Positions 50,603-56,133 of a DNA stretch of 59,797 nt are shown here, in pieces. The DNA is from an uncultured Muribaculaceae bacterium (GTDB taxonomy: Bacteria > Bacillota_I > Bacilli_A > RF39 > UBA660), in NCBI GenBank assembly GCA_964370575.1, contig CAYJJT010000001.1:1192-60988 (forward strand). The letters run 5' to 3'. Below the pieces are notes generated by a model. The model made no database searches and was not told the origin of the DNA. It saw only the letters and a program-made list of their open reading frames with translations. The translations under genes and the position numbers were made by a program. How positions within the stretch are numbered: the stretch's first letter is position 1; each line of letters begins with the position of its first letter.

Positions 50603-50931
50603 GATTATCTATCTCTTTCCAGATATCTTCATAGTACTCATAAAATTTTTTAGTTTTTCTTAACTCAATAGTGTTATTTCTTTCTTCAAAATAAATATCA
50701 AATACTTTCTTAACCAAGGCAGGTCTTTTTGATAATACTATAACTCTGTCACTCATTGTTATAGCTTCTGCTAAATCGTGTGTGACCATTATTACACTTT
50801 TTCCTTCATTTTTTATTATTTTATAAACATCTTCAGTTACTGCAATACGGGTTTGATAATCTAAAGCACTAAATGGCTCATCTAATAGTAATATATCTGG
50901 TTTTGTAGCTAATGTCCTAATTAAAGCTACT
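50595..50931 (-). pseudogene. ABC ATPase, C-terminal fragment (Walker B, H-loop)
   Basis: Hand translation upstream of ORF 50595-50789: (V)[55 protein letters not shown]... There is no start codon or N-terminal half at this position. Confidence 0.85.
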
Positions 50932-51008
50932 GCTTGAGCACATTATAACCAAAAAAATAATTAACACAATTTAGAACAAACAATATTATAAATTGAAGGA
51001 GTGTTTTT

Positions 51009-51782
51009 ATGAACGACATTATATTTGCATTAAGTCTGACATTATTTGCAGGATTAGCAACTGGAGTAGGAAGTATAATAGCTTTATTTGTTAAAAAACA
51101 AAGCAATAAATTTTTATCACTTTCACTAGGATTTTCAGCAGGAGTTATGATATACGTTTCATTAGTTGAAATATTTGTCAAAGCAAATGAATCATTAAAT
51201 CAGGTAGTTGGACAATATTTAGGTGGATGGTTTACTGCTGCTGGTTTCTTTTTCGGAGTAATATTAATAGCAATAATTGATTATATTTTACCATCAAATA
51301 AATTATCAGAACTAGATAATAAAAAAGATAAATCTAAACTTTATCGAATGGGAGTATTCACAGCTCTAGCTATTGCTATACATAACTTTCCTGAAGGACT
51401 CGCTACATTTATATCTGCATTAGAAGATCCATCGGTTGGAATAGCCATAGCTATAGCTATTGCTATTCATAATATACCTGAAGGAATAGCTGTTTCTGTC
51501 CCTATTTATTATGCTACTGGAAATAAATTAAAAGCTTTTAAATATTCTTTTTTATCTGGTATTGTTGAACCTGTTGGTGCAATAATTGGATATTTATTAC
51601 TAATGCCTTTTATGAACGATATTGTCTTTGGATTCATATTTGCATCTGTAGCTGGAATTATGGTTTTTATTAGTATAGATGAACTTTTGCCATCCGCTCG
51701 TGAATACGGTCGACAATCACTAGTTACGTATGGAATGATATTAGGAATGGCCGTAATGTCAATAAGCTTGCTAATAATATAA
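51009..51782 (+). CDS. zupT: Zinc transporter ZupT (ZIP family)
   Basis: Multi-TM protein with duplicated HNFPEGLA / HNIPEGIA motifs. RBS AAGGAG. Confidence 0.9.
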
Positions 51783-51788
51783 TTTAGC

Positions 51789-53276: not shown

Positions 53277-53337
53277 AACCTTAAAATCACCTATTATATT
53301 ATATTTTTTAAATAAAAAAAAAGACTATTATAGTCTT

Positions 53338-55620
53338 TTATTCTGTTCTAAGCGCTTCTACAGGATCTTTTTTACTTGCCATCTTTGATGGAATAAATCC
53401 TCCGATGAGTGTTAAAATCATGCTAATTAATAACAATGATATTGCATGAATTGGGTTCATTTTTGCAACATCTGGTAAATCAGTCAATGATTCAATAACT
53501 ATATTTATCGGGAATGTTAAAAGCCAAGTAATTAGTAATCCAAGTGTACCTGCTGAGAAACCTATTATTAAAGTTTCTGCATTAAATACACGCGTTATAT
53601 CTTTCTTACGAGCACCTAAGCTTCTAAGAACACCAATTTCTTTTGTTCTCTCTAATACAGAAATATAAGTAATGATTCCGATCATAATACTTGATACAAC
53701 TAAACTTATTGCTGAAAATGCTACTAATACAATTGTAATAGCATCCATAATACTGCTTGATAAATTTGCAATCATTTCTGCCATATCTGTATATAAAATT
53801 TGATCAACTTCTTCTTTATCATCATTGTATTTATCTAAATATTCTGTTATTTTTTCTTTAGTTTCAAAATCTTTAGGATATAATTGAATCATGATTGGCG
53901 TTTCATCATTACCTAGATATGATAAAAATACATCTTTACTATTATTTCCAGTCTCTTCAAACTTAGCACCTGTTAATACATTAACATCACTATTTAATTG
54001 TGCATTAACTATTAAAGAATTTTGGTTAGATTCGATTAACTCATCTAGTAAACCTGGCATATATAAAATACCTGAATTATTAGTTAAATTTTCTGTATCT
54101 TCTTTACCTCTAATAACTCCTACTACTTTTAAAGTAATATTATTTTCATTATTATAAACTTGTTCTAAATTTTGATTTGGAACAAAATAGTTATTAATTG
54201 ATAAATAATAATCATCATTTTTAACAGCCTTTAATTCTTTACCAAGAACATTATCTATTTTTATTTCATCTTCATTTATATCTAAACCCAATAATGTTAA
54301 TAATTCTTCTTCTACACTATTTGTATTATCCATAATTAACAATATTTCATTACTAGCTTCAGGATAGTTACCAGCAACTACATCATAATTCTTAGTAATA
54401 TAATTAGCAACTTCTCCATCAGTATTAGTTGGCATAGAAGATATACCTTGAATATTCCCTACTGGTTTATATTCACCATTATTGAAACTCATTAAATTTA
54501 ATGATGCAATAGTAGTTGTAGATATACCATCTAATAGATTTGAGTCAATACTTTCTATATAATCAACATAGTCTAATGTAATATTGTTTGTATGTGTCAC
54601 TTGTTCTTCAATAGCTTCCATTGGATATATAGTATCATCATTTGGATATAATTCTCTCACTTCAATATTAGGCATCATCACATCATCAGAACTCATTGCT
54701 TGCTCAGTGATCATTATAGGCATTGATGACAATGTTGATTTTTCAAATTCACTAATTTGTATATCAAAACCATTTGAAAGTGCTAAAATTAAAGAAATCC
54801 CTATAATACCTATACTAGATGCAAAAGCAGTTATAAGAGTACGACCTTTTTTAGTCTTTATATTATTAAAAGATAACTTTAGTGCAGTTAAATAATTCAT
54901 AGCTGTCTTTTTTATATTATAGCTTTTATTATCATTATTATCAGTTACCGGATTAGAGTCACTTGTAACAGTTCCGTCTTTCATATCAATAATTCTATTT
55001 GCATATTCATGAGCTAATTCTGGATTATGAGTTACCATAATTACTAATTTATCTTTTGCTATTTCTTTAATTAATTCCATAATTTGAACACTAGTTTTAC
55101 TATCCAGTGCTCCCGTTGGTTCATCTGCTAATATAATTTCTGGATCATTAGCAAGTGCACGAGCAATAGCTACTCTTTGCATTTGCCCACCAGACAATTG
55201 ATTAGGTTTTTTATTAGCGTGTTCTTTAAGGCCAACTTTTTCTAGTACTTCAAGAGCTTTATCTTGACGTTTTTTTGCACTTATACCACTTAAAGTCATT
55301 CCTAATTCAACATTTTGTAAAACAGAAATATGACTGATTAAATTATAACTTTGAAAAATAAAACCAACACAATTATTTCTATAACTATCCCAATCTTGAT
55401 CTTTAAAATTCTTTGTTTCTTTATTATTAATAATTAAATTACCAGCATCATATCTATCCAGTCCTCCAATAATATTTAATAATGTCGTCTTTCCACTACC
55501 ACTTGGACCAAGAATAGATACAAATTCATTTTTTCTAAATTTTAAACTAACACTATTTAATGCAATTTGATTAAAATCACCTGTTTTATAAACTTTAGTT
55601 ATTTTTTTAACTTCTAACAT
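53338..55620 (-). CDS. Fused ABC ATPase + FtsX-type permease (MacB-like efflux transporter)
   Basis: GPSGSGKTTLLN, LSGGQMQRVAIARAL, ILADEPTGALD and VTHN, followed by a TM, a large extracytoplasmic domain and a C-terminal FtsX-type 3-TM bundle. Confidence 0.85.
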   Translation of the reverse strand: MLEVKKITKVYKTGDFNQIALNSVSLKFRKNEFVSILGPSGSGKTTLLNIIGGLDRYDAGNLIINNKETKNFKDQDWDSYRNNCVGFIFQSYNLISHISVLQNVELGMTLSGISAKKRQDKALEVLEKVGLKEHANKKPNQLSGGQMQRVAIARALANDPEIILADEPTGALDSKTSVQIMELIKEIAKDKLVIMVTHNPELAHEYANRIIDMKDGTVTSDSNPVTDNNDNKSYNIKKTAMNYLTALKLSFNNIKTKKGRTLITAFASSIGIIGISLILALSNGFDIQISEFEKSTLSSMPIMITEQAMSSDDVMMPNIEVRELYPNDDTIYPMEAIEEQVTHTNNITLDYVDYIESIDSNLLDGISTTTIASLNLMSFNNGEYKPVGNIQGISSMPTNTDGEVANYITKNYDVVAGNYPEASNEILLIMDNTNSVEEELLTLLGLDINEDEIKIDNVLGKELKAVKNDDYYLSINNYFVPNQNLEQVYNNENNITLKVVGVIRGKEDTENLTNNSGILYMPGLLDELIESNQNSLIVNAQLNSDVNVLTGAKFEETGNNSKDVFLSYLGNDETPIMIQLYPKDFETKEKITEYLDKYNDDKEEVDQILYTDMAEMIANLSSSIMDAITIVLVAFSAISLVVSSIMIGIITYISVLERTKEIGVLRSLGARKKDITRVFNAETLIIGFSAGTLGLLITWLLTFPINIVIESLTDLPDVAKMNPIHAISLLLISMILTLIGGFIPSKMASKKDPVEALRTE

Positions 55621-55713
55621 TTATTTCATCTCCTATTTTATAACAATATAATTATATCATAAATCACATAAAGAAATCACAATATATTTATGTGAAATTT
55701 TGGTATTTAAAAT

Positions 55714-56133
55714 TCATACTACTCTTTGTCGCATACCACCAGACAAATTCGATGGTTTACTATTCATAAATTTTTCCAACCCATAAGATTTTAGCAGAGC
55801 CTTAACATAATTTATATTATCATTCGTTAATTCATTTTGAATCTCTAAACCTATTAAACAATTTTCCAATATTGTTCTATATTCAAGTAAACAATCATCT
55901 TGTAGCATATAGCCTATTTTTCTTTTACCATAGATTATATAATCTCCTGAACTTTTTTTTTCTAAACCTGATAACATAGAAAGTATTGTCGACTTTCCAC
56001 ATCCACTTGGACCTACAAGAGAAATAAATTCATTATCATACAAATCAATTGAGACATCTTTCACTGCAATTATTTCCTCAGCTAAAGTATGATAATTTTT
56101 TTGTAAATTAGTTATTTTTAATATTCTCTCCAT
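55714..56133 (-). pseudogene. ABC ATPase, N-terminal fragment (Walker A to signature motif)
   Basis: GPSGCGKST, the Q-loop MLQDD and LSGGMRQRV are followed by V*, so the ORF ends immediately after the ABC signature. Walker B and the H-loop are missing here. Confidence 0.85.

Follow-up and report, generated by a model that had tools for sequence, protein, structure and literature searches.

Locus and interrupted ATPase gene

The 59,797-bp stretch analysed here (the window) lies on contig CAYJJT010000001.1 (assembly GCA_964370575.1) of an uncultured Muribaculaceae bacterium assigned by GTDB to Bacilli_A, RF39, UBA660, and it carries an integrated element with its own large serine recombinase (LSR) inside the ATPase gene of an ATP-binding cassette (ABC) importer operon. 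On the minus strand the gene order is tsaE, tsaB, rimI, tsaD, the three-gene importer operon and pcrA, where the names of the tsa genes, rimI and pcrA come from reading the encoded proteins and comparing them with the annotated neighbourhood of a related species. The importer consists of an NMT1/THI5-like binding protein, a permease and a NitT/TauT-type ATPase, and the gene for the ATPase is interrupted after codon 138 by 4,792 bp (Table 1). Its 5' fragment, closed by a TGA at 55716..55714, matches Pfam ABC_tran over profile positions 1-117 of 137 only. The 3' fragment, preceded directly by a duplicate GTA codon at 50930..50928, lacks a usable start: its frame is closed by a TAA five codons upstream, and the earliest start codon available is the Met of MVTHD. 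The 3' half is thus predicted not to be translatable alone, and the interrupted ATPase to be inactive.

A first-pass annotation of the window had proposed that an element is integrated precisely inside this gene, with the open reading frame (ORF) at 55714-56133 continuing in the same orientation at 50595-50931, with CTACT at both junctions, and with the ATPase restored by removal of one CTACT copy and the insert. Each of these points was borne out. CTACT (plus strand; AGTAG on the gene strand) is found at 50927-50931 and 55719-55723, and removing one copy with the intervening DNA in silico produced an ATPase of 248 aa which is colinear end to end with intact orthologs of 247-250 aa at 64-69% identity. 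A search with the repaired protein returned thousands of intact matches; the best 120 listed are 243-253 aa long, and the closest among the matches listed is 69% identical over 99% of the length. When aligned with ten orthologs, the repaired ATPase is gapless at the joint, LSGGMRQRV and LIRTL are invariant, and only A139 varies across the 15 residues spanning the joint in this 11-sequence alignment. In a related species, with an ATPase 67% identical to the repaired one, the same neighbourhood (rimI-tsaD-...-SBP-ATPase-permease-...-PcrA, where SBP is the substrate-binding protein) is present with an uninterrupted ATPase and an intact operon in ten samples. A 5-bp repeat is by itself uninformative, but precise repair of the gene is beyond chance.

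The permease gene is damaged as well, its codon 78 being TAA in the window versus Glu in 20 of 20 orthologs. Unless this TAA is a sequencing error, the window permease gene is a pseudogene, and the split ATPase together with the permease nonsense codon predicts a dead transporter. An Rfam scan of the whole window found no RNA family and hence no riboswitch hinting at the transporter substrate, and a promoter and terminator scan performed no better than on shuffled sequence in this AT-rich DNA.

Recombinase and cargo of the window element

The first-pass annotation had identified the intervening gene as a 495-aa large serine recombinase, and both its Pfam domain set and the match of its AlphaFold model to integrase-DNA complexes agree. 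The protein matches PF00239 (Resolvase; E 7e-17, residues 7-160), PF07508 (Recombinase; E 6e-22) and PF13408 (Zn_ribbon_recom; E 1e-6). The catalytic Ser14 lies within YLRLS, and Y10, R12, L13 and S14 are invariant in 40 homologs, as are the zinc-ribbon cysteines C329, C332, C349 and C354 in the 40-sequence alignment. The AlphaFold model (mean predicted local distance difference test score, pLDDT, of 76) has a helical hairpin at residues 380-452, made of helices 380-420 and 426-452 at pLDDT ~90, which is the predicted coiled-coil hairpin inserted in the zinc ribbon. Over its whole chain the model fits the full-length integrase-att complexes 9dxh, 9rah and 9iu2; the best PDB match is 9dxh (E 3e-23), followed by PhiC31, Bxb1 and 4kis. 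Its catalytic domain resembles the Clostridioides difficile conjugative-transposon recombinase 3g13 (E 1.5e-17) and TnpX 2mhc (E 3e-8), and 3g13, 2mhc and 3bvp match this domain both by sequence and by fold. In an NCBIfam scan of the element proteins the LSR reached no equivalog cut-off. Judged by its domains, the window LSR appears to be complete.

The LSR is the sole recombination gene of the insert, in which Pfam detected no transposase. Two transporters make up the cargo: the ZupT protein scores 369.6 bits against the NCBIfam ZupT equivalog, over the cut-off of 252, and the exporter scores 284 bits against NCBIfam MacB, under the cut-off of 966. A repeat search found no long terminal repeats, as expected of a serine-recombinase element, and no second attB-like site was found in the window at up to 3 mismatches. 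A half-copy of attB is present within the MacB-like gene at 55138-55197 (minus strand, LSGGQMQRVAIARAL), where ttgtctggtgg and caaagaGTagct are identical to the target and the right arm is different; this half-copy does not seem to serve as an integration site.

Table 1. Features of the element and the surrounding importer operon (window coordinates)
Feature	Coordinates	Strand	Details
Integrated element, one core copy	50929..55720	-	4,792 bp
attL	55695..55748	-	host arm 55723-55748; GT core 55721-55722; element arm P' 55695-55720 (AGTATGAATTTTAAATACCAAAATTT, gene strand)
attR	50903..50956	-	element arm P 50931-50956; GT core 50929-50930; host arm 50903-50928
Large serine recombinase, 495 aa	51789..53276	-	Pfam domains, alignment, AlphaFold model
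Cargo: predicted MacB-like exporter, 760 aa	53338..55620	-	fused ABC ATPase and FtsX permease; Pfam ABC_tran, FtsX
Cargo: ZupT/ZIP zinc transporter, 257 aa	51009..51782	+	Pfam Zip
ATPase 5' fragment	55714..56133	-	codons 1-138, one element-encoded codon, TGA
ATPase 3' fragment	50595..50927	-	codons 139-248 and stop; Walker B, D-loop, H-loop
Substrate-binding protein gene (NMT1/THI5-like), host operon	56133..57140	-	intact
Permease gene, host operon	49817..50602	-	probable pseudogene; codon 78 (50369-50371) = TAA

A family of elements at a single ATPase codon

Relatives of the LSR were collected by scanning one genome per species, which yielded 80 loci with a related recombinase (numbered with the prefix L below). 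In 34 of the 80 the LSR is at least 47% identical to that of the window, and in 29 of these 34 an orthologous ATPase half is broken at codon 138/139, with both halves present in 19. A search of related genomes for the recombinase had been suggested in the first-pass annotation, and these 29 informative loci, all in metagenome-assembled genomes of gut Bacilli with LSRs 47-66% identical to the window's, share the same ATPase codon. At the other five loci the recombinase match reaches a contig end or, in L080 (6637-8427), is split into two pieces (6637-7329 and 7777-8427), which suggests that the L080 gene is frameshifted or interrupted. LSRs at 39-44% identity, mostly from Clostridia, are located outside this ATPase gene. 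Hosts of the family are labelled uncultured Bacilli in most cases and Muribaculaceae, Clostridium or Mycoplasma in a few, and the samples are of gut type, including rabbit, human, sheep and chicken. The window LSR forms the deepest branch, with 48-54% identity to all other members, and L011 and L021 branch next; public data held no relative more than 66% identical and no second copy.

Complete elements measure 2.8-10.9 kb and have the recombinase as their sole common gene. Cargo confirmed by Pfam includes a heavy-metal P-type ATPase with an ArsR regulator, an AbiEi/AbiEii toxin-antitoxin pair, a C5 DNA methyltransferase, a RhuM/Fic protein and, in some relatives, a rolling-circle Rep, which adjoins a protein that we read as FtsK-like and that has no Pfam match; sequence features suggest surface-protein clusters as well. 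The cargo of L025 (11659-13866), also Pfam-confirmed, is an alanine racemase and a D-Ala-D-Ala ligase, a pair resembling cell-wall precursor remodelling modules. No directionality factor or regulator is conserved across the family elements. A C-terminal DUF4368-like match was detected in 7 of 10 members tested (E 1e-6 to 5e-4), two of which exceed the Pfam gathering cut-off, and the window LSR has no DUF4368 match at E <0.01.

The annotated cargo of the family elements contains no phage structural genes. A scan of IMG/VR with the LSR gave one distant match only, at 22% identity, and a scan with the attP pattern gave 3 chance matches with no LSR nearby. The family is absent from the viral contigs of IMG/VR, and a prophage is ruled out on these grounds. 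The elements form a large family, widespread in uncultured low-GC gut Bacilli and always found at the same ATPase codon.

Attachment sites and crossover

Attachment (att) sites were reconstructed from 20 complete elements by lining up the junctions on the ATPase reading frame. The family attP consensus is GTGTCTtTActA.ATTCAAAcA-GT-TGctTGAAT.t..TAaAGACAC, that is, imperfect inverted arms of ~22 bp flanking a 2-bp GT core, with 13-20 of 26 positions symmetric; the family attB consensus is TATCTGGtGGtATGAgACAAAGA-GT-aGCTtTaATcAGgACAC. GACAC occupies positions +18 to +22 of the attP arms; in attB it is found in the right arm, at +13 to +17, and thus 5 bp closer to the core. A 5-bp offset in attP/attB spacing of this kind has reportedly been described for the Listeria (LI) integrase-DNA structure. 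The TGA in the conserved element arm is the stop that ends the truncated ATPase two codons past Val138.

Identity between attL and attR across the 20 elements ranges from 2 bp (L011, GT only) to 12 bp, with 5 bp in the window. The core dinucleotide always falls within this identity and is GT everywhere except L021 (junctions 2330 and 9507), in which the core is AC and host codon 138 is ACT. In the window the GT lies within AGTAG and makes up positions 1 and 2 of the Val138 codon. Because the site is fixed, the overlap variable and the dinucleotide constant, CTACT contains the crossover and is not a target duplication, as the first-pass annotation had proposed; the combination of a fixed site, a 2-12 bp overlap and a constant dinucleotide is a signature of serine recombination, unlike that of a transposase. 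The reconstructed window attP is TTTTTTGGTTATAATGTGCTCAAGCA-GT-AGTATGAATTTTAAATACCAAAATTT, with a predicted junction of GCTCAAGCAGTAGTATGAATTTTAAATACC and a predicted repaired attB of GGTATGCGACAAAGAGTAGCTTTAATTAGGAC. Near the core it fits the family (TCAAGCA-GT-AGTATGAAT), its proximal TGAAT agreeing with the consensus.

Relative to the ATPase, the recombinase gene runs in the same direction in 13 elements and in the reverse direction in 7, and in many elements its 3' end adjoins an att arm. The occurrence of both orientations and the AC core of L021 are consistent with polarity being set by the central dinucleotide alone, between near-palindromic arms.

Empty and occupied alleles

The ATPase was repaired in silico for ten loci, and the products were looked up as exact matches in public data. 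Repaired ATPases of L006, L012 and L013 were found verbatim in public assemblies, and the same 90% clusters hold truncated ATPases of 139-141 aa on many more contigs (e.g., 66, 33, 28 and 59 contigs, versus 2-10 for the intact forms). At the nucleotide level, the natural empty site L179 aligns with excised L013 without gaps over ~800 nt at 99.6% identity, and the natural empty site L181 likewise with excised L017 at 99.0%. Insertion in nature is precise: the empty-site alleles match the products of in-silico excision. This match also lends indirect support to the predicted catalysis of attP x attB recombination. Every complete occupied locus retains both halves of the ATPase as intact ORFs.

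A metagenome scan with the ATPase alignment retrieved mostly distant ABC ATPases and five orthologs, and so gives no unbiased insertion frequency. Truncated N-terminal ATPase fragments of 135-147 aa make up 81 of the 119 other cluster representatives listed (P0265-P0383), and some of them are on contigs of up to 55 kb. A second class of fragments is 168-169 aa long, one of them on a contig of up to 509 kb. Candidate retrieval was word-based and not length-neutral, and the length distribution was not used as an estimate of prevalence. The occupied state appears to be widespread, and some short fragments may merely be cut by contig ends.

Other recombinases in the same operon

In the same set of loci, other serine recombinases have interrupted the binding-protein and permease genes too, again at fixed positions. 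Six loci (L006, L013, L017, L018, L021 and L029) have a break at ~residue 207 of the permease, and four of them carry an LSR clade that is 49-95% identical internally and ~24% identical to the window LSR. Comparison of empty and occupied sites places this crossover within GGA, between palindromic arms TTTCTCCCCATACC and GGTATGGAGAGAAA. These permease-site elements occupy 13554-18809 in L013 and 13567-18820 in L017, and in L182 begin at ~5384. The binding protein is broken at ~residue 195-203 in L012 (2139-7465), L015 (from ~11128) and L022 (~358), with a distinct LSR clade in L012 and L015 (65% identical), and at ~residue 150 in L007 (3856-8063) and L018 (1-797), with a third distinct clade (46% identical). 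All three operon genes are interrupted in L018.

A single 90% ATPase cluster shows all four states of the ATPase and permease sites: neither occupied in L181, permease only in L182, ATPase only in L014, and both in L013 and L017. Insertion at the permease site is independent of the ATPase-site element. In L024 (8653-9606) and L027 (12020-12973) the binding-protein gene has an in-frame stop beside an occupied ATPase site. Given the fixed-site insertions by other LSRs and these point lesions, the operon is a landing pad shared by four unrelated LSR clades, each with its own site among the three genes, and one that is often not maintained after disruption.

Nature of the element and alternative explanations

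Taken together, the data make it very probable that the inserted DNA is a small integrative element that carries cargo and is moved by the LSR it encodes. Precise insertion, the anatomy of the att sites, site fidelity across the family and the existence of occupied and empty alleles within species are all shown by the data. By analogy with characterised serine integrases, recombinase dimers would bind the ~50-bp attP on the circular element and the attB in the ATPase gene, which covers the codons of the 15 residues spanning the joint. They would cleave attP and attB at the central GT of the Val138 codon, exchange the half-sites through rotation of subunits and rejoin the ends as attL and attR. 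Integration shortens the ATPase two codons past Val138 at the TGA of the element arm and orphans its Walker B half, so that the importer is knocked out, and the host acquires a zinc importer (ZupT) and an exporter of MacB type. Across the family, only the recombinase and attachment site stay constant and the cargo is freely exchanged. This copy may itself be mobile and may pass between cells.

Several observations weigh against this account as applied to the window copy. No directionality factor, relaxase or origin of transfer (oriT) was recognisable in the window element; the circular form of this element was not found; and exact look-ups of the window TsaD and LSR returned no other contig of the organism and no conspecific empty site. 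The permease nonsense codon suggests that the insertion is not recent. The window attP fits the family near the core only, with distal GACAC replaced by ACCAAA and an ungapped arm symmetry of 11 of 26, and its arms could reflect decay. It is conceivable, if rather doubtful, that the window copy is an immobilised fossil which arrived by serine recombination, no longer excises and sits in a decaying locus. The loss of an invariant Glu codon in the permease, the off-consensus distal attP motifs with their low symmetry and the lack of any close LSR relative or second copy would all fit such a history. Against it, the recombinase ORF is full length and keeps every invariant family residue, both ATPase halves are still open, and the two attP arms share a symmetric motif of their own, TA(A)CCAAAA, in place of GACAC, with AACCAAC in the next-deepest members L011 and L021. 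We read these distal motifs as a recombinase and site that probably co-evolved in a basal subgroup.

The element could also be a regulated intervening element like skin, SPbeta or gin of Bacillus, in which case excision would rebuild the ATPase and the insertion would act as a reversible transporter switch. Such a switch would account for the intact ORFs of both ATPase halves in every complete occupied locus, for excision that is scarless at the protein level, and for the persistence of sequence-identical intact alleles in two species whose truncated alleles are on far more contigs. This persistence is, however, explained equally well by ancestral polymorphism, and the elements have neither a directionality factor nor a regulator in common. 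In about half of the occupied loci the partner genes are further damaged, by nonsense codons (the window permease and the L024 and L027 binding proteins) and by other LSR insertions in at least 10 loci, which would make a switch pointless, and we consider this explanation improbable. It is also unlikely that loss of the importer operon or reversible switching is itself selected, making the operon more than a neutral safe harbour. That idea draws on the four LSR clades with separate attBs, on insertions that are independently polymorphic within one species, on the excess of contigs with occupied ATPase alleles in two species and on the intact split halves. If it were true, the elements would have converged on the operon because disruption pays, and the host might, speculatively, gain by losing a surface receptor or a path by which a toxic analogue enters.

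The 5-bp direct repeat flanking the insert might also be read as the CTACT target-site duplication of a transposon, or the interruption as a naturally split ATPase or an assembly chimera, and these readings are scarcely credible. Duplication by a transposase is ruled out by a gene content in which the LSR is the only recombination gene and by a repeat whose length differs among relatives inserted at this site, from 2 to 12 bp. Naturally split orthologs with unrelated DNA between the halves, which the first-pass annotation had held up as the potential counter-evidence, did not appear; orthologs are intact and colinear, ruling out a natural split. A chimera is ruled out by recurrence of the same junctions in 29 independent assemblies.

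Comparison with known systems

The serine integrases of SPbeta, PhiC31, Bxb1 and Listeria A118/LI (4kis) have the same domain order as the window LSR (catalytic domain, recombinase domain, and a zinc ribbon with an inserted coiled coil), and their att sites, like those of the window family, are short imperfect inverted repeats with a non-palindromic core of 2 bp. The window LSR is only 13-21% identical to the solved serine integrases and, unlike phage integrases, its family is absent from IMG/VR and its members span 2.8-10.9 kb without phage genes. Also comparable are the site-specific serine-recombinase integrative and mobilisable elements (IMEs) of Firmicutes, such as the streptococcal rumA elements, which are small, have a single recombinase and very short flanking repeats, insert in and disrupt a dispensable conserved gene, and carry adaptive cargo (PMC5704250). 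The window family has the same size class, single LSR, short repeats and gene disruption, with a new target gene. IMEs are recognised by a relaxase, oriT or mobilisation gene, and the window element codes for the LSR, the MacB-like transporter and ZupT only; an oriT may nonetheless escape recognition from sequence alone.

The window LSR resembles TnpX and TndX of Tn4451 and Tn5397 in its catalytic domain. DUF4368-like C-terminal matches in the family mostly fall below the Pfam cut-off, and the window LSR has no significant one; no directionality factor is evident. The DUF4368 clade of LSRs has been linked to multi-targeting recombinases (Durrant et al. 2022, PMC10083194). TnpX, TndX and this clade have low target specificity, in contrast with the strictly single-site window family (29 of 29 informative relatives). 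Diverged LSRs are also known to converge on one conserved coding site, for example in a Mg-chelatase-like gene or at a prolyl isomerase site (PMC10083194). Window-family LSRs ~48% identical likewise keep the same attB in conserved coding sequence; in contrast to that convergence, four LSR clades here use separate sites in three genes of a single operon. Among intervening elements of spore formers, skin in sigK, SPbeta in spsM and gin in gerE excise on a developmental cue in the mother cell (PMC5595907). They too are LSR elements situated mid-gene whose precise excision restores the frame, and gin is likewise small and not phage-like. The window family differs in showing no evidence of regulated excision, and the further operon lesions argue against it. 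Cassettes of the SCCmec type resemble the family in their fixed chromosomal site, serine recombinase(s) and variable cargo, and the window LSR scores far below the NCBIfam cut-offs for CcrA and CcrB. Staphylococcal cassette chromosome (SCC) elements use CcrAB or CcrC at the 3' end of rlmH, which is not inactivated.

In the open-access text searched, no description of this ATPase target and no account of four LSR clades partitioning one operon was found. The first-pass annotation had described small serine-integrase elements in such a gene as not commonly described, which holds for that literature and not for nature, where the family is large and always at this site.

Implications

The mechanism is already known; what is new is the target gene and the partitioning of one operon among four LSR clades. 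The combination of near-threshold DUF4368-like C-termini with a strictly single-site family is also distinctive. The element itself would not much surprise specialists, and the site map of the family and the multi-recombinase landing pad are of moderate interest. The family offers at least 20 natural serine recombinases with mapped attP/attB pairs for one target, diverged to ~48% identity and spanning two classes of distal-arm motif and both orientations of the recombinase gene, and is a ready resource for work on DNA recognition by integrases and on orthogonal tools for genome engineering. The mobile elements of these small-genome gut Bacilli are poorly charted, and the small cargo-swapping elements described here would move metal-transport, toxin-antitoxin, restriction-modification and cell-wall genes among these uncultured hosts. 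That one importer operon serves as the landing pad of four LSR lineages raises the question of why it is expendable or worth losing.

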